Virus record (IMG/VR): IMGVR_UViG_2740892423_000026
Coordinates: 1-13,814 of that record
Strand: one strand, 5' to 3'
Origin: a virus
Taxonomy: Duplodnaviria; Heunggongvirae; Uroviricota; Caudoviricetes
Length of the DNA stretch: 13,814 nt
The notes under the pieces are model-generated. The model was given only the letters and a program-made list of their open reading frames with translations. It was not told the DNA's origin and did no database searches. The translations under genes and the position numbers were made by a program. Within the stretch, counting starts at the first letter, position 1. Each line of letters opens with the position of its first letter. Below are positions 9,796-13,289 of this stretch, piece after piece.

Positions 9796-10569
9796 TCAAA
9801 AATTAGGTGAGTAACGGACCGGGGACATAGCTCCTTTTTTTCTTAATTCATCTGGTATTTTTTTTCCAAGATAAAGATTTGCTATTTCAGGTGGGGCTTC
9901 TCGACCTTCAAAACCATAGCGCGAACTTTGTGTTGCCTCAAAGTCAGGATCCTCGTCCCAGTATTTCAACGAAGGGAAATTTTCACGTGTTGATTTGAGC
10001 CATTTATCAGCAATGAAAACCCCTCGAACGATCCCTCTTACAGTAGCAAGAATGATTTCTGCTTGGCTGGCGCGAGAGACATTAATGCGCCAGCTAAATC
10101 GAACCGCATCATAAAGCTCTGAATCCTTTGCACTTCTGTTAACGGATATCATTAATGCTTTATGATGAAATGTTATGGTTTCGGGCTGATATGTTGCTAT
10201 CAACTCTTTGACATGCGCGGCGCCGAATTCATTGCTGCCAGCACCATTCATGATATTCGTTAACCCAGGGTAGGCATCAATAAGTGCTGCTTCAACTTCG
10301 TACGCCGTCTTTTCATCAGTCATTCCGTGTCGATGGATGACATGGATAACTTCAAGTCCTGCTAACCTTATTTCTCTAATTTGCTTTAGCTTGTTGCTCA
10401 GTAACTCGTCATCATCAGTCGCTGCCACTTCACCGCGCATATGGGCAAATACGCGGTTACCTTTGCCTTTCCCTACATAGAAGGTGCTTCCGTCCCTCGG
10501 ATCAATCAATCGGTATACATACCAGCCAAGGTGTTCAATTACTCCAGAAGGAAACTCAGTAATATCCAT
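9796..10569 (-). CDS. GIY-YIG-type nuclease domain protein (N-terminal GIY-YIG-like domain, about 150-aa C-terminal region of unknown function)
   Basis: From the first ATG (10569): [47 protein letters not shown].., i.e. VYR-(10 aa)-YVGKGKGNR..H spacing like GIY-YIG (compare UvrC GVYRM..IYVGKAK..R), followed by acidic E and N-containing segments. The ORF track extends to a TTG at 10620; neither start has a clear Shine-Dalgarno. Confidence 0.6.
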
Positions 10570-10753
10570 TTTGCAATATCTGTGAATTATTTGTGAGACG
10601 TATATTAATGAACATTGCAAGGGCTCACAACTAGTAGTGTTGAGAAAGCCATCGGGAAAATGAGGCTAATTCTTTGAATTTACATAGTAAAAAAAGATAC
10701 TTTTCCTCATAGTGTGAGCTAATTTTATGTTTCGTTTGATGATCGGACCGGTC

Positions 10754-10794
10754 TCAAAAACCGCAGGCACGTTGTATGCAAGAACGTGCTGTGG
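10754..10794 (-). terminator. Terminator-like hairpin (repeat copy B), related to copy A at 9729..9780
   Basis: TCAAAAA then CCGCAGGCACGTT-GTATGCAAG-AACGTGCTGTGG. On the - strand the hairpin is followed by TTTTTGAG. About 33 of 39 positions are shared with copy A by eye. Confidence 0.45.
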
Positions 10795-10957
10795 CTGGCT
10801 GGTGAACTTCCAATAGTGCGAATATTGAATGATGTCCAGCCGTTACCGTTTTTACGTGTTTATTAGTGAACAAACCACTCGTCAGCAGACTCCTAGGTAT
10901 GAACAAAAGTTTTAGCTGAAACTCTATCTGTGGTGCGCGTAACAGAAGTGTAATAAA

Positions 10958-10976
10958 AGGCCCTAGAAAAGGGCCT
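10958..10976 (-). terminator. Short hairpin downstream of the 47-aa ORF (weak terminator candidate)
   Basis: AGGCCC-TAGAAAA-GGGCCT stem-loop; on the - strand it is followed by TTTATTAC. Confidence 0.35.
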
Positions 10977-10990
10977 AAGATTAGCAAAGA

Positions 10991-11134
10991 TTATCCTCGA
11001 TACTTAGAGGCAGGAATTTTGATAGGAAAGGCTGCCAAGCCTTTTTGACGAGCAAAGATCCGTTTACCTTTGACCGTAATAAAAGGACGGTAAATTGTGA
11101 TGTATTCCTCAGATACAGCTTTTTCAATGGTCAT
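10991..11134 (-). CDS. Hypothetical small protein (47 aa), below the ORF-track length cutoff
   Basis: ATG at 11134 (- strand) to TAA at 10991: MTIEKAVSEEYITIYRPFITVKGKRIFARQKGLAAFPIKIPASKYRG. Weak AGGT Shine-Dalgarno; hairpin immediately downstream. Basic and non-hydrophobic; no motif I recognise. Confidence 0.3.
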   Translation of the reverse strand: MTIEKAVSEEYITIYRPFITVKGKRIFARQKGLAAFPIKIPASKYRG

Positions 11135-11160
11135 ATCGTGTTACCTGTAAAGTTTCGCTG

Positions 11161-11188
11161 TTGACAAAACCTAAGGTAAGCGTATACT
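11161..11188 (+). promoter_or_regulatory. Near-consensus sigma70 promoter (TTGACA-16 nt-TATACT) firing toward the ImmA 3' end
   Basis: TTGACA at 11161..11166, 16-nt spacer, TATACT at 11183..11188. No + strand ORF follows; a terminator lies about 45 nt downstream. Confidence 0.5.
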
Positions 11189-11194
11189 CACAAC

Positions 11195-11258
11195 CGCCAA
11201 GTTTTTCGTATTTGCTTACGATAGGAGAAGCCAGCGACAGCGGTTCGCTGGCTTTTTC
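11195..11258 (+). ncRNA. Candidate small RNA (about 60-65 nt) defined by a consensus promoter and an intrinsic terminator
   Basis: Predicted +1 about 7 nt after the -10. Transcript ends at GCCAGCG-ACAGCGGTT-CGCTGGC hairpin (11230..11252) followed by TTTTT. No start codon inside. Lies opposite the ImmA 3' end / intergenic region of the - strand operon. Confidence 0.35.
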
Positions 11259-11793: not shown

Positions 11794-11796
11794 TAT

Positions 11797-12147
11797 TCAG
11801 TCCTTTAACATTTTATTAAGCTTATCGAGTTGCTCTGGACTCAGGTCCTTAAATTTACGAGCAAAAACAAGCATTAGTTCTTTGTTCTGCTCATTTGCAT
11901 CCGACATATCAACCTTAATGGACGGTTGAGAAATCTCTGCCTGTTTCTTGAGATTGATGATGTCTTGTCCGCTAAGCTCAAAAGTTGTTGCAATCGTATT
12001 TACTAATGAGTCCGGTATAGCTCTTTTGCCTAATTCAATGGCGGATAAGTAAGCCGAACTAACGCCTAACAGATCAGCCATATTTTTGAGCACCATACCC
12101 CGGTCTATTCTCATTTTTCTGAGAGTCTTACCAAAGCTAGTTACCAT
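11797..12147 (-). CDS. XRE-family helix-turn-helix transcriptional regulator (ImmR/repressor-like)
   Basis: HTH_3-type helix-turn-helix ..MVLKNMADLLGVSSAYLSAIELGKRAIPDSLVNTIATTFELS... Start placed at ATG 12147 because it is preceded by AGGAGG with a 6-nt spacer (the ORF track starts 9 codons earlier without an RBS). Confidence 0.8.
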   Translation of the reverse strand: MVTSFGKTLRKMRIDRGMVLKNMADLLGVSSAYLSAIELGKRAIPDSLVNTIATTFELSGQDIINLKKQAEISQPSIKVDMSDANEQNKELMLVFARKFKDLSPEQLDKLNKMLKD

Positions 12148-12176
12148 GTTGCGCCTCCTACAATCCATGCTCACTT

Positions 12177-12205
12177 ATACTAAAAACCAAACTCAAGATC
12201 AACAA
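12177..12205 (-). promoter_or_regulatory. Candidate promoter for the XRE-ImmA operon (TTGTTG-17 nt-TAGTAT on the - strand)
   Basis: Reverse complement of 12200..12205 is TTGTTG, 17-nt spacer, reverse complement of 12177..12182 is TAGTAT, about 30 nt upstream of the XRE start. TGTAG-type repeats at 12209..12215, 12244..12249 and 12293..12298 lie just upstream as candidate operator half-sites. Confidence 0.3.
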
Positions 12206-12429
12206 AAATTGTAGAATTTTTTAATCTCAGCGTGTGATGACAATCTACATAAAATCATGAAATGGTGCAAGGCGTAACTTAAAAAATACCACATGTAGTG
12301 TCAATTTTATGTGCTGTATGGATATATGGGGTTGGTAAACTTTTGCTCTTTTGTGCTCCTCAGCTATGTGGTTGTTTGATTTTTGAACATCTTGTGGAAC
12401 ATAAATTGGGTTTATGCTTTTCCCTTTCG

Positions 12430-12457
12430 GTGACAACATGTTTATAGGATGTATAAT
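12430..12457 (+). promoter_or_regulatory. Candidate sigma70 promoter for the Bro-N gene (GTGACA-16 nt-TATAAT)
   Basis: GTGACA at 12430..12435, 16-nt spacer, TATAAT at 12452..12457, followed by AGGAGG (12468..12473) and the GTG start 7 nt later. Confidence 0.45.
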
Positions 12458-12480
12458 CCATAAAAAAAGGAGGGGATGGC

Positions 12481-13242
12481 GTGCAAAAGAATTTGTTACA
12501 ATTATGCTACGAAGAAGAGTGTGGAGAAAATTATATCCGTAGCATGAATGAAAAAGGGCAGATTTTTGTTTCACTTTCAGATGTGCTAAGAACGCTTTCT
12601 GCTGAGAACAGAAAACTGGATGGAAAGACTTCTCAAAGCTTGCTCACTGTAATAAGAGCGGTAATAAAAACTTTAGATCCAGATGAGTTTAGGAATGTTT
12701 CTCTTGTCGTGGATGGTGAAACTATCTCTGAGGTATTTCTTACTGAACCAGGTCTATATAGAGTACTTGCTCAGGATACTACTGCTGCGGGGAAAAAATT
12801 CCAACGCTGGCTTTTTCATCAGGTCCTTCCGTCTATTCGTGAATTTGGTGTATATCCTCCGCCACCTAAACAAGAACGTTCAGAACTGAGTGCTTTTGCT
12901 AACAGTCTGCAGCAGACGGTTCAAGCATTGGTAATGGAAATAGAAAAACGTGAAGAGTTAGAAAGTAGAGTAAACCAAGTTGAACTAAAAGTTAACTCGT
13001 TAGAAAGTTTAAGAGACTTGTCTCAGTTCAGAAGTGTTCCTCAACGATTGATGGAGTTAGGTTTGGATACCTATTCAGTTGAGGAACTTTGGCAATGGTG
13101 TGAAAAATTGCGTAGTGAACGTGGAGCAGAAAGAATTAAGTGCCCCTCCGGATTGAATATAAATTCTTGCTATCCATTAGCTTTGGTTGATGAAGCTATC
13201 GCTATATACCAGAAAGTAGTTGAGGCAAGAACACGTCAGTGA
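12481..13242 (+). CDS. Bro-N domain protein (antirepressor-like; N-terminal Bro-N DNA-binding domain, central coiled-coil, C-terminal domain of unknown function)
   Basis: GTG start with a strong AGGAGG RBS. Bro-N signature ..FVSLSDVLRTL...LTEPGLYRVLAQDTTAAGKKFQRWLFHQVLPSIREFGVY.. matches the conserved F-x-x-W-L/V-x-x-x-V-L-P-S-I-R-x-x-G-x-Y core of Bro-N / Ant N-terminal domains. Divergent from the XRE-ImmA operon. Confidence 0.75.
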   Translation: MQKNLLQLCYEEECGENYIRSMNEKGQIFVSLSDVLRTLSAENRKLDGKTSQSLLTVIRAVIKTLDPDEFRNVSLVVDGETISEVFLTEPGLYRVLAQDTTAAGKKFQRWLFHQVLPSIREFGVYPPPPKQERSELSAFANSLQQTVQALVMEIEKREELESRVNQVELKVNSLESLRDLSQFRSVPQRLMELGLDTYSVEELWQWCEKLRSERGAERIKCPSGLNINSCYPLALVDEAIAIYQKVVEARTRQ

Positions 13243-13261
13243 GCTTGAGGGAAAAAAACAA

Positions 13262-13289
13262 AAAAGCCCGCATAAGCGGGCTTTTTTGT
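13262..13289. terminator. Strong bidirectional rho-independent terminator (after the Bro-N gene; also faces ssrA)
   Basis: AAAAAAACAAAAAA, then GCCCGC-ATAA-GCGGGC, then TTTTTT. The A-run on one side and T-run on the other give hairpin+U-tract on both strands. Confidence 0.75.

Follow-up and report, generated by a model that had tools for sequence, protein, structure and literature searches.

Three units of probably independent origin in the accessory arm of an Escherichia coli lambdoid prophage at ssrA

Genes and features of the locus

The window (the whole stretch of DNA that was analysed, 13,814 nucleotides) shows a drop in GC content from about 0.57 to about 0.40 on entering the AT-rich end of an E. 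coli prophage. The GC content is 0.37-0.45 over positions 9750-13250 compared with 0.48-0.61 in the K-I-J-lom-tail-fibre block. This AT-rich segment is the moron arm of a lambdoid prophage at ssrA, equivalent to the lambda b region, as the original prediction had proposed, and the listed genes and features were recovered at or near the claimed coordinates:

9796..10569, minus strand: cmoRE/PD-T4-3, single-gene type IV GIY-YIG restriction endonuclease, 257 aa (PADLOC, PDB 9U75, phrog_5356)
10869..10946, minus strand: C-terminal remnant of a dinI-family gene, decayed (deletion, in-frame stop)
10958..10976, minus strand: terminator-like hairpin closing the XRE-ImmA-orf47 operon (7-bp stem, 5 GC pairs, T-run)
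10991..11134, minus strand: orf47, a conserved basic protein of 47 aa from a family without annotation; cargo of the cassette
11124..11273, minus strand: 'orf49', RefSeq hypothetical protein coinciding with the antisense RNA, frame broken in relatives
11161..11188, plus strand: antisense RNA promoter TTGACA-16-TATACT, 11/12 consensus matches
11189..11270, plus strand: candidate cis-antisense sRNA, about 75-80 nt (fold, conservation, covariance model)
11260..11793, minus strand: ImmA/IrrE-family (COG2856, M78) zinc metallopeptidase, 177 aa (Pfam Peptidase_M78 2.8e-11)
11797..12147, minus strand: XRE-family HTH repressor of 116 aa (HTH_19 3.7e-09); C-terminal domain conserved
12174..12270, minus strand: control region of the XRE operon; no other stretch of the XRE-Bro-N spacer is conserved across all cassette relatives
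12430..12457, plus strand: Bro-N gene promoter GTGACA-16-TATAAT, 11/12 matches, with a GGAGG RBS at 12469-12473
12481..13242, plus strand: Bro-N domain protein, 253 aa (Bro-N 2.4e-07)
13257..13290, bidirectional: strong palindromic terminator in the Bro-N/ssrA gap (15-bp stem, 7 GC pairs)
13413-13775, minus strand: ssrA (tmRNA), integration target of the prophage (ARAGORN; Rfam RF00023, 295.8 bits)

Known kinds of genes dominate in the locus, and profile searches upheld the original domain assignments with the E-values listed above and 2.5e-14 for a LEM-3-like GIY-YIG domain in the nuclease. The XRE-ImmA locus is not the primary immunity region of the prophage, which is ymfK/ymfT; ymfK, ymfT and ymfL are found about 25 kb away within the same prophage. 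Each gene had also been credited with a promoter and a terminator of its own. A region-wide scan gave 7 promoter-like sites against 7.7 expected from shuffled sequence and 5 terminator-like sites against 3.3, with no convincing promoter for the nuclease gene. The region as a whole is thus no richer in such sites than shuffled sequence, and that claim is based on the conservation of individual sites and not on the raw scan.

The nuclease gene

The GIY-YIG gene is, judged from its sequence, the published PD-T4-3/CMoRE, an already characterised nuclease. It matches PADLOC PD-T4-3 over profile positions 1-255 of 256 (E = 8.7e-140), the crystallised O157:H7 protein in PDB 9U75 over its full length (E = 5e-171, with 7 of 257 residues differing) and phrog_5356 (E = 7e-142). 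The tyrosines of the GIYxY-YIG motif (Y17, Y19 and Y31) and the acidic loop TDDDELL are visible in the sequence. The mechanical ORF call covers 9796-10620 on the minus strand; the gene itself starts at the ATG at 10569, in agreement with the RefSeq annotation of an identical locus.

The identity of cmoRE comes from the present analysis and its function from the literature, where CMoRE/PD-T4-3 is a type IV restriction system against DNA with 5hmC or glucosyl-5hmC (PMC12923530, PMC12366544), documented as a single gene that is active on being cloned by itself under its native promoter (PMC12923530). The C-terminal domain of the enzyme senses the modified DNA and its GIY-YIG domain degrades it, and the destruction of T4-like DNA shields the lysogen, in which expression would be constitutive, from T-even-like phages.

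The locus had been read as an anti-phage module without a match to a named system. The first part holds for the nuclease, which is a validated defence gene, but a single system uniting it with the remaining genes is not supported; the second is now only partly true, the nuclease being a named system. An integrated arrangement, in which XRE represses the divergent Bro-N gene with or without the downstream nuclease and ImmA relieves the repression on infection or damage in a joint anti-phage or exclusion function, is unlikely. It is consistent with the co-inheritance of all units at an identity of at least 99% in the 31 of 5,426 E. coli genomes that carry the whole locus. However, the nuclease gene occurs in 838 of these 5,426 genomes, about 96% of them having it in other contexts, which speaks against a nuclease and a switch working as one. 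In O157:H7 and strain LR-06, cmoRE follows the Pin invertase and XRE, ImmA and Bro-N are absent nearby. Conversely, the cassette is present without cmoRE in phage LLS and in L018-L023, and the closest cassette relatives (L018 and L019) have a umuD-like gene and an intact dinI at the position of cmoRE. The terminator and the dinI pseudogene stand between the nuclease gene and the XRE-ImmA operon in the window. The DNA of this pseudogene is similar to phage dinI genes, and tblastn with phage DinI gave E = 0.001 with the alignment SVTRTTDRVSAKTFVH--T*ESADEWF.

The XRE-ImmA cassette and its cargo

ImmA carries the motif HELGH, and residues H100, E101, H104 and E130 are invariant in 25 homologues. 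The ATG of XRE at 12147 has an AGGAGG ribosome-binding site 6 nt upstream and is also the RefSeq start; the mechanical ORF reaches 12174. Only 3 nt separate the XRE stop from the ImmA ATG (TGA ATA ATG), which makes translational coupling plausible. In PADLOC, XRE matches capH over its full length (6e-11) and ImmA matches capP (5e-15) over profile positions 31-146 of 242 only, and ImmA also matches the RmrA models.

About 170 bp beside XRE is the only part of the spacer conserved among cassettes with and without Bro-N. The control region contains a promoter-like TTGATC-17-TATAAG at 12202-12174, a second promoter-like site upstream (TTGCAC-17-TAGATT) and the inverted motif TGTAGAAT / AATCTACA at 12210-12217 and 12242-12249, with no other copy in the locus. 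The candidate XRE operator was chosen by conservation. XRE would bind this TGTAGA...TCTACA motif and repress its own operon until a signal activates ImmA and XRE is cleaved. By analogy with ImmR/ImmA, DdrO/IrrE and CapH/CapP, the signal would most likely be DNA damage or phage-induced ssDNA/RecA filaments, and the increased transcription would reach orf47.

The XRE-ImmA pair is a portable cassette that takes different positions in different prophages. A Serratia prophage has homologues in its nin region, and Providencia has them adjacent to Q; in a Mu-like prophage they lie between Mor and the lysis genes and in L022 beside an integrase, and elsewhere they are divergent from a restriction-modification operon. 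The hosts of the cassette differ in immunity type and cassette position, and most cassette relatives are without Bro-N.

Sequence comparisons indicate that orf47 is a real gene for a basic protein. Every lineage with an ImmA identity of 46% or more keeps it, and its substitutions by codon position (43:50:165) have a coding pattern. The operon terminator hairpin lies 15 nt past its stop codon. The RefSeq protein 'orf49' is most likely not a gene: its frame is broken in LLS, L020, L021, L187 and others, and its substitutions (17:10:10) lack a third-position bias.

The candidate sRNA, which had been predicted earlier, is real as a sequence feature. It overlaps the stop codon of ImmA and the spacer between ImmA and orf47, and consists of a 5-bp hairpin followed by a 14-bp terminator hairpin (11224-11258) and a U-run, with a fold energy of -26.8 kcal/mol (z = -3.9). 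The promoter, hairpin and U-run are retained across seven lineages, the -35 element being kept in every relative and the -10 element in all those whose ImmA is at least 72% identical. The sRNA locus is 0.90 identical to phage LLS compared with 0.70-0.76 in the flanking genes. The covariance model R1 matches cassettes of this ImmA clade and nothing else, each time in antisense orientation at the 3' end of ImmA, and a search of Rfam gave zero family matches. Paired G-C to A-U changes are seen in the stem in L025 and L268, but a formal covariation test on the RNA alignment did not reach significance, with 189 of 500 shuffles scoring as high as the 1 double-sided change observed. The hairpin is a candidate structure backed by conservation, thermodynamics and compensatory changes in the folds of two divergent lineages only. 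The antisense RNA, which is strongly promoted and convergent between ImmA and orf47, would keep orf47 silent at the basal level until derepression of the operon is complete.

We infer from these features that XRE represses, ImmA cleaves, a signal induces, the antisense RNA is transcribed and orf47 is active. The effector of the cassette would be orf47, either as a small growth-arresting or nucleic-acid-binding protein or as a small antirepressor. A toxin-antitoxin-like or abortive-infection function, with a toxic or growth-arresting orf47, the antisense RNA as a type-I-style antitoxin and XRE/ImmA as a type-II-style layer, is possible but doubtful. The pairing of a small ORF with a cis-encoded antisense RNA that is conserved and has a strong promoter resembles, by analogy, the damage-inducible tisB/istR, symE/symR and ralR/ralA. 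COG2856-Xre modules have long been predicted to be parts of multi-component toxin-antitoxin systems (PMC2701414), Xre-peptidase proteins occur in validated defence (PD-lambda-2, and the RmrA models matched by ImmA), and the cassette moves among phage accessory regions with other toxin-antitoxin and defence genes. On the other hand, orf47 is hydrophilic and basic (GRAVY -0.13, pI 10.3) unlike most membrane-active type I toxins, and PADLOC gave zero matches for it. Nor does the antisense RNA cover the start region of orf47: in mRNA terms, its 5' end falls about 60 nt before the orf47 start, clear of the ribosome-binding site.

The Bro-N gene

The Bro-N protein has a Bro-N/KilA-N-type DNA-binding fold, a long coiled coil and a small C-terminal helical domain. 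An equivalent ATGACA-16-TATAAT promoter is found in 17 of 20 Bro-N loci irrespective of their neighbours, and the terminator towards ssrA has A-runs and T-runs on each side. Bro-N occurs without XRE/ImmA in about 17 viral lineages and in 4 genomic contexts; most Bro-N loci lack the cassette, and some lie in non-phage chromosomal islets.

Control of Bro-N by XRE, as the integrated arrangement requires, fits the divergent layout of repressor and protease against cargo seen in ImmR/ImmA and CapH/CapP, to which the capH and capP matches also point. In L042, a second, non-orthologous XRE/ImmA pair lies immediately upstream of a Bro-N homologue, and Xre-Bro is a catalogued recurrent phage gene pair (PMC2701414). 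Together, these make some functional link between XRE and Bro-N possible. Against this, the Bro-N promoter is kept without any XRE/ImmA, and the conserved XRE motif is absent from it, which is weak negative evidence because the operator was guessed from conservation.

The region had also been suggested to be a second immunity (immI-like) region. In this reading, which could also be of Gifsy type, damage would free Bro-N or orf47 as an antirepressor that inactivates the repressor of this or a co-resident prophage and causes induction. Bro-N is similar to the 'anti-repressor Ant' families of PHROG (phrog_130, 4e-17), both ICEs and phages are induced under ImmR/ImmA switches, and orf47 has dinI or umuD-like genes as neighbours, both in the window and in L018/L019. 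In Gifsy prophages, induction and cross-talk are driven by small (about 70 aa) damage-inducible antirepressors encoded next to dinI (PMC3121763). However, a domain search found neither ANT (PF03374) nor KilA-C, the domains of characterised Bro-N antirepressors, in the Bro-N protein. The main repressor YmfK (224 aa) belongs to the LexA family, whose members are normally self-cleaving, so an antirepressor should be needless. The idea is disfavoured on these two grounds and is given a low probability. The near-consensus Bro-N promoter suggests constitutive expression and is a poor fit to an inducer, the cassette is spread over differing immunity types and positions, and sequence searches detected no similarity of orf47 to any known antirepressor.

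The locus is probably a mosaic of three independently acquired and independently transcribed units, cmoRE, the XRE-ImmA cassette and Bro-N, which would be adjacent through a shared insertion hotspot with no shared mechanism. As the final gene ahead of the attachment site, Bro-N would be expressed from its own promoter, probably in the lysogen, and would act on DNA or on the regulator of another element. The modestly new parts, both with putative functions, are the Bro-N family and the conserved cargo of the cassette, a previously undescribed 47-aa gene with its antisense RNA.

Comparison with known systems

The cassette shares a small protein gene, a damage-type switch and a cis sRNA or dinI neighbour with tisB/istR-1, symE/symR, ralR/ralA and the Gifsy dinI-antirepressor operons. 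This is an analogy only, as sequence and fold similarity are absent, orf47 is not hydrophobic and control would be by XRE/ImmA and not LexA, no LexA box being present.

Bro-N has the N-terminal Bro-N/KilA-N-type fold, the phage-borne location and the PHROG Ant similarity in common with Ant of the P22/P1 type (Bro-N with ANT or KilA-C). It differs in having the coiled coil and a small, unassigned C-terminal domain instead of ANT/KilA-C, a constitutive-looking promoter and a terminal position next to att, and in being found also in chromosomal islets.

CapH/CapP (Lau et al. 2022; PMC13228613) gives the best defence-library matches for XRE and ImmA. The likeness, by analogy, would be an HTH repressor cleaved by a peptidase on DNA damage and a portable regulator beside variable cargo. 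In CapP, a central HTH and a C-terminal GAF domain form an ssDNA-binding groove (PMC13228613), whereas ImmA in the window ends after the peptidase domain, so CapP sensing cannot apply as described.

The closest match in size and architecture is ImmR/ImmA of ICEBs1 and the phi105-type switches (COG2856-Xre), which likewise are operons of mobile elements, with XRE directly followed by an HEXXH M78 peptidase of about 170-180 aa and a neighbour gene transcribed divergently. The pair in the window is, however, not the master switch, and its cargo is an antisense RNA and a 47-aa protein, not integrase or excision genes.

The nuclease is the same system as CMoRE/PD-T4-3 (Vassallo et al. 2022; PMC12923530; 9U75, 9U7U), sharing its GIYxY-YIG motif, its acidic loop and the C-terminal sensing domain, and is likewise a single prophage-borne gene. 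Nothing material differs except the context, an XRE/ImmA cassette at ssrA compared with the Pin invertase in O157:H7.

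Organisation of the locus

The locus between the long tail fibre gene and ssrA is a mosaic of three independent units and not one system. The window as a whole represents the right arm of a lambdoid E. coli prophage, in which the locus follows the genes K, I, J, lom and the long tail fibre gene and extends to ssrA. The same locus is annotated at 99.9% identity in E. coli strain 4588 (NZ_CP123237.1), where smpB, ratA and recN come after ssrA. The GC content is 0.48-0.61 among the structural genes but only 0.37-0.45 over 9750-13250. The original prediction that an AT-rich accessory segment separates the last structural gene from the integration site is thus correct. 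The locus has the following features:

9796-10569, - strand: GIY-YIG nuclease gene (cmoRE/PD-T4-3)
10869-10946: decayed dinI fragment
10958-10976: terminator-like hairpin
10991-11134, - strand: orf47
11124-11273, - strand: 'orf49', a RefSeq hypothetical ORF
11161-11188, + strand: promoter of the antisense RNA
11189-11270, + strand: predicted antisense RNA
11260-11793, - strand: ImmA gene
11797-12147, - strand: XRE gene
12210-12217 and 12242-12249: inverted motif
12430-12457, + strand: promoter of the Bro-N gene
12481-13242, + strand: Bro-N domain gene (253 aa)
13257-13290: palindromic terminator
13413-13775, - strand: ssrA (tmRNA)

All ORFs named in the original prediction are found in the window, and its four domain calls hold in the HMM check, where every Pfam match exceeds the gathering score. 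The nuclease starts with the ATG at 10569 (257 aa) and XRE with the ATG at 12147 (116 aa); RefSeq and a good ribosome-binding site concur in both cases.

Pfam domains of the four proteins (domain, protein, Pfam match)
LEM-3-like GIY-YIG, nuclease, 2.5e-14
Peptidase_M78/IrrE with HELGH, ImmA, 2.8e-11
HTH_19 (XRE-type HTH), XRE, 3.7e-09
Bro-N, Bro-N protein, 2.4e-07

The neighbourhood had been read as a defence or exclusion module. An anti-phage function is indeed present in the nuclease, but the single system dissolves into three independent units. Among 5,426 complete E. coli genomes the whole 3.7-kb locus occurs in only 31 and the nuclease gene in 838. The combination had not been matched to a named system; the nuclease does belong to one, PD-T4-3/CMoRE, but the whole is a mosaic. 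The nuclease is an already known system and the repressor/protease pair is of an already known kind. At a prophage hotspot, what looks like a tidy pairing of a nuclease with a switch can consist of three insertions unrelated to each other, and guilt-by-association would misplace a known single-gene restriction enzyme within a larger system.

The nuclease

By its database matches the nuclease is a member of the CMoRE/PD-T4-3 family. It aligns to the PADLOC PD-T4-3 model PDLC04031 over profile positions 1-255 of 256 (E = 8.7e-140), to the crystallised E. coli O157:H7 protein 9U75 over residues 1-257 with 7 of 257 differing (E = 5.1e-171), and to 9U7U over residues 1-257 (E = 1.6e-150). The translation has the GIYxY-YIG motif in the N-terminal domain (G15-W-Y17-V-Y19 ... 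F30-Y31-V-G33), and the tyrosines Y17, Y19 and Y31 are the signature of the family (PMC12923530). The acidic autoinhibitory loop is present, aligned to EVAAADDDDLL of 9U75, and the C-terminal modification-sensing domain (residues 130-257) is gapless on 9U75 with five substitutions.

PD-T4-3 originates from the functional selection by Vassallo et al. and, after its later characterisation, bears the name CMoRE. [quoted passage not shown] CMoRE cloned alone behind its native promoter is active (PMC12923530). Because the window nuclease differs by these seven residues in 257 from the O157:H7 protein that was assayed, it is expected to cleave DNA with 5hmC or glucosyl-5hmC and to restrict T-even phages.

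The nuclease is autonomous, given the single-gene activity in the literature and its presence elsewhere in E. coli where these neighbours are missing. In E. coli O157:H7 and LR-06 the prophage is of another type: the gene stands behind a Pin invertase there, and its surroundings contain neither XRE nor ImmA nor Bro-N genes. In the window, the terminator-like hairpin and the decayed dinI fragment part it from the upstream XRE-ImmA operon. The commoner context of CMoRE, at 3886-5274 in the loci of O157:H7 (L271) and LR-06 (L272), is directly after a Pin/Fin-type serine invertase at an invertible tail-fibre segment. This setting agrees with recent reports of small serine recombinases as markers of defence genes.

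The closest cassette relatives that lack the nuclease carry a gene for an umuD-like S24 peptidase and an intact dinI in its place (L018, 1232-1922; L019, 2384-3094). This makes it likely that the nuclease replaced them later, at a hotspot of insertion. Next to Bro-N, other prophages repeatedly have umuD-like, umuC, dinI and SRAP-like genes as well. The recurrence of umuD-like and dinI genes in both places gives the hotspot a DNA-damage theme.

The XRE-ImmA pair

The XRE stop and the ImmA start are separated by 3 nt, and the two genes are linked in all 22 viral loci. H100, E101 and H104 of the HEXXH zinc site in ImmA, together with the downstream glutamate E130, are invariant in 25 homologues. 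Homologous pairs, with 29-88% ImmA identity, are always mutually linked and occupy very diverse genomic places.

Places of XRE-ImmA homologues
Adjoining attP: phage LLS, which has a related cassette
Adjacent to an integrase
nin region: Serratia prophage
Adjoining Q: Providencia
Interval of Mor and lysis genes: Mu-like Rheinheimera prophage
Divergent from an XhoI-type R-M operon: Marinimicrobium
Near HipA-like/DUF3037 pairs or a TIR-like/HNH cluster

The pair is a portable cassette with its own cargo. A primary immunity region was ruled out as its identity, and the original view that the locus is distinct from that region is borne out: ymfK (a 224-aa LexA-family repressor), ymfT and ymfL lie about 25 kb off in the same prophage. 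Among the matches listed in a scan of a genome collection with the ImmA alignment, all relatives had at most 39% identity and were uninformative on RNA and cargo, and a degenerate DNA-pattern scan of viral contigs gave mostly chance matches and one new cassette.

Two of the pairs (34-35% identity; L028, 1920-3727, and L031, 6010-7784) were judged by eye to adjoin a HipA-like kinase and a DUF3037 protein, which suggests a recurrent link to a candidate HipA-like/DUF3037 module.

About 170 bp beside XRE is the sole part conserved in cassettes with and without Bro-N. This control region holds a promoter-like TTGATC-17-TATAAG, and the inverted motif TGTAGAAT/AATCTACA is found nowhere else in the locus. 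A search of 9700-13412 gave no LexA box with at most one mismatch, which rules out LexA control.

Predicted antisense RNA and orf47

The 49-aa 'orf49' between ImmA and orf47 is in all likelihood no protein gene but the stretch from which an antisense RNA is templated, as its pattern of change indicates. Phage LLS and several more of the relatives have an interrupted frame, its substitutions by codon position (17:10:10) have no third-position bias, and its DNA identity to LLS is 0.90 as compared with 0.70-0.76 for the surrounding genes. The opposite strand has a near-consensus promoter (TTGACA-16-TATACT) followed by a 5-bp hairpin and then a 14-bp hairpin with a U-run. The predicted RNA of about 80 nt folds with -26.8 kcal/mol (z = -3.9). 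Rfam gave no match at 11189-11270, either at the gathering threshold or at E <= 1, and a known sRNA was thereby ruled out.

A covariance model built from nine copies had all its matches in cassettes from this ImmA clade, each time antisense to the 3' end of ImmA (Edwardsiella 80 bits, Serratia 57 bits, Providencia weak but correctly placed), and did not find the RNA in loci with Bro-N only. The promoter, hairpin and U-run are kept in each of seven lineages, and the two most divergent have paired G-C to A-U changes in the stem, at two and three positions. A formal covariation count on the RNA alignment was not significant because the near-invariant stem hardly varies and one divergent sequence is misaligned (the 3' arm of L025 is one base out of register); the stem changes were judged from per-sequence folds instead of the model alignment. 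The hairpin structure is well supported by conservation and energetics, and unproven by covariation.

One weak match to the RNA model (21 bits, E = 0.21) lies in a Candidatus Fimenecus MAG (L074, 4487-4556, - strand). It directly follows a 32%-identical ImmA gene (4001-4483) with the same antisense placement as in the window, and may be due to chance or to an arrangement older than the enterobacterial clade.

The antisense RNA, whose transcription is predicted, lies upstream of the orf47 start region without overlap, and both elements are conserved. The small ORF accompanies the XRE-ImmA pair down to 46% ImmA identity. Its substitutions by codon position (43:50:165) follow a pattern like that in ImmA (271:216:748) and XRE (142:65:388), which marks orf47 as a real gene under purifying selection. 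The relatives share the motif Y-x-T-I-[YF]-R-P-F-I-T-x-K-G-K-R-I-[YF]-A-x-Q-K-G-L-x-A-F. An exhaustive HMMER search gave 29 cluster representatives, nearly all of 42-82 aa and none annotated; 'homologues' of 416 and 2,002 aa were judged to be spurious repeat or Ig proteins. This corrects the annotation: the RefSeq hypothetical protein 'orf49' most likely marks an antisense-RNA template, and the adjoining 47-aa ORF is a real, selected gene.

The orf47 protein is confidently modelled as a small beta unit (pLDDT 82), and no structural neighbour of the model was found. By analogy it could be a growth-arresting nucleic-acid-binding effector of a toxin-antitoxin-like kind or, with roughly equal weight, a miniature antirepressor like those of Gifsy, whose genes also adjoin dinI (PMC3121763).

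The Bro-N gene

The third unit encodes a protein with an N-terminal Bro-N domain as in the Bro-N antirepressors (Ant). Neither a C-terminal ANT (PF03374) nor a KilA-C domain was found in it at E <= 0.1, and PF03374 is carried by only the most distant of its sequence relatives (E > 1e-5). In the model, a coiled coil and a small helical domain make up the C-terminal half, for which all matches were generic coiled-coil ones.

In 34 viral loci the attachment site almost always follows directly on this gene. On its upstream side lie diverse genes (dinI, umuD-like/umuC, an SRAP-like gene, HicAB, VapBC, RhuM), and four genomic contexts have no XRE or ImmA at all. Of 20 contexts, 17 conserve the promoter ATGACA-16-TATAAT together with an A-run and the ribosome-binding site GGGG, the similarity between loci starts at the -35 element, and the palindromic terminator follows the gene. 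This anatomy is that of a self-contained moron, and the Bro-N gene is probably expressed in the lysogen. Some functional affinity between XRE/ImmA and Bro-N kinds of genes may exist, as a non-orthologous XRE/ImmA pair is found directly upstream of a Bro-N homologue (L042) and Xre-Bro is a catalogued recurrent gene pair (PMC2701414). As the family sits at prophage ends behind a strong promoter that does not vary, it offers a well-defined and inexpensive candidate for a screen for lysogenic conversion or exclusion.

The reverse complement of the 3' half of a tRNA (GGTCGGCACGAGAGGATTTGAACCTCCGACCCC...) abuts the Bro-N -35 element at locus positions ~4900-4960, some 60 bases ahead of the Bro-N start, in seven loci (L043, L044, L045, L050, L054, L057, L059). 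The Bro-N cassette is therefore flanked there by a piece of a tRNA gene or a remnant of an att site; this stretch is absent from the window. In Methylovulum, glyQ and glyS are separated by an inserted Bro-N homologue of 38% identity (L003, 6001-8339; L004, 489-2827), part of a compact three-gene islet, with an AAA_21/AAA_15 ATPase (340 aa) and a protein of 165-183 aa, that resembles a defence insertion.

Observations in the structural genes

The window has three 10-base runs of N (3005-3014, 3436-3445, 6644-6653). The first two enclose a block of 421 bases (3015-3435) whose product nearly repeats a preceding part of the tail-tip protein gpJ, and which inflates J to 1,312 aa, compared with a gpJ gene of 3,483 bases in strain 4588. 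The near-duplicate looks like an artefact of assembly or scaffolding and not biology. At 9500-9683 (+ strand) there is a match to Rfam IS009 (RF02111; E = 5e-20) that, with 88.8 bits, stays below the gathering score of 117; it spans the 3' end of the tail-fibre gene and the next spacer and is clipped at its 5' end by the query boundary.

Proposed function of the cassette

By analogy with ImmR/ImmA, DdrO/IrrE and CapH/CapP, XRE would repress its own operon until a signal related to damage or infection led ImmA to cleave it. Transcription of the operon would then extend into orf47, whose basal expression would be held down by the convergent antisense RNA.

It is possible, but on the whole doubtful, that temperate phages of enterobacteria have in this cassette a portable effector module, so far undescribed and triggered by a signal. 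In such a module a protease-controlled repressor and a cis-antisense RNA would gate a 5-kDa basic protein. After DNA damage or superinfection the protein would either arrest the cell, which would make the module an abortive-infection device or a toxin-antitoxin hybrid of types I and II, or serve as a miniature antirepressor of a new class. As a separate point, the Bro-N gene with its own promoter, which is the last gene of many prophages, could be a new exclusion or defence factor expressed in the lysogen. If the cassette works by the mechanism proposed above, it would have a compact two-layer control, by proteolytic derepression and antisense RNA, of a very small effector. The cassette moves among prophages of Escherichia, Salmonella, Klebsiella, Edwardsiella, Serratia and Providencia.

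The antisense RNA with orf47, and the promoter-bearing Bro-N family, appear to be undescribed in the searched libraries and literature; the literature search found no paper describing the cargo or a Bro-N protein like this one as a defence factor. They are the sole, modestly novel elements of the locus, and we infer their functions from anatomy and analogy.

Comparison with known systems

The window pair shares with ImmR/ImmA (COG2856-Xre) the order of an XRE HTH gene and a COG2856/M78 peptidase gene in one operon, and the HEXXH site with a downstream glutamate. However, ImmR/ImmA is the master switch of its element, whereas primary immunity here belongs to ymfK/ymfT/ymfL and the pair has accessory positions in other phages.

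CapP consists of a peptidase, a central HTH and a C-terminal GAF domain, the last two of which form an ssDNA groove (PMC13228613). The window ImmA, in contrast, has 177 aa without the HTH and GAF domains, covers positions 31-146 of 242 in the capP profile only, and has Peptidase_M78 as the only Pfam domain found. CapP membership is ruled out by this architecture. A CapH-like repressor combines an HTH with a C-terminal oligomerisation domain. XRE matches the capH profile over positions 2-96 of 103 (E = 6e-11), and its C-terminal ~40 residues are highly conserved among relatives. As for a CapH/CapP-style regulation of an adjacent defence operon, the neighbours of the cassette vary and the putative operator motif is missing at the Bro-N and cmoRE promoters.

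RosmerTA (RmrA) and PD-lambda-2 have a fused HTH-peptidase and a partner toxin, whereas HTH and peptidase are separate genes in the window. The RmrA matches cover the peptidase core only (E = 4e-11 and weaker), and no HigB-like or other known toxin adjoins XRE-ImmA. Type I toxin-antitoxin pairs consist of a small protein gene and a cis-encoded antisense RNA, and their toxins are usually small hydrophobic membrane peptides; the orf47 protein is instead hydrophilic and basic (GRAVY -0.13, pI 10.3) and has no hydrophobic stretch.
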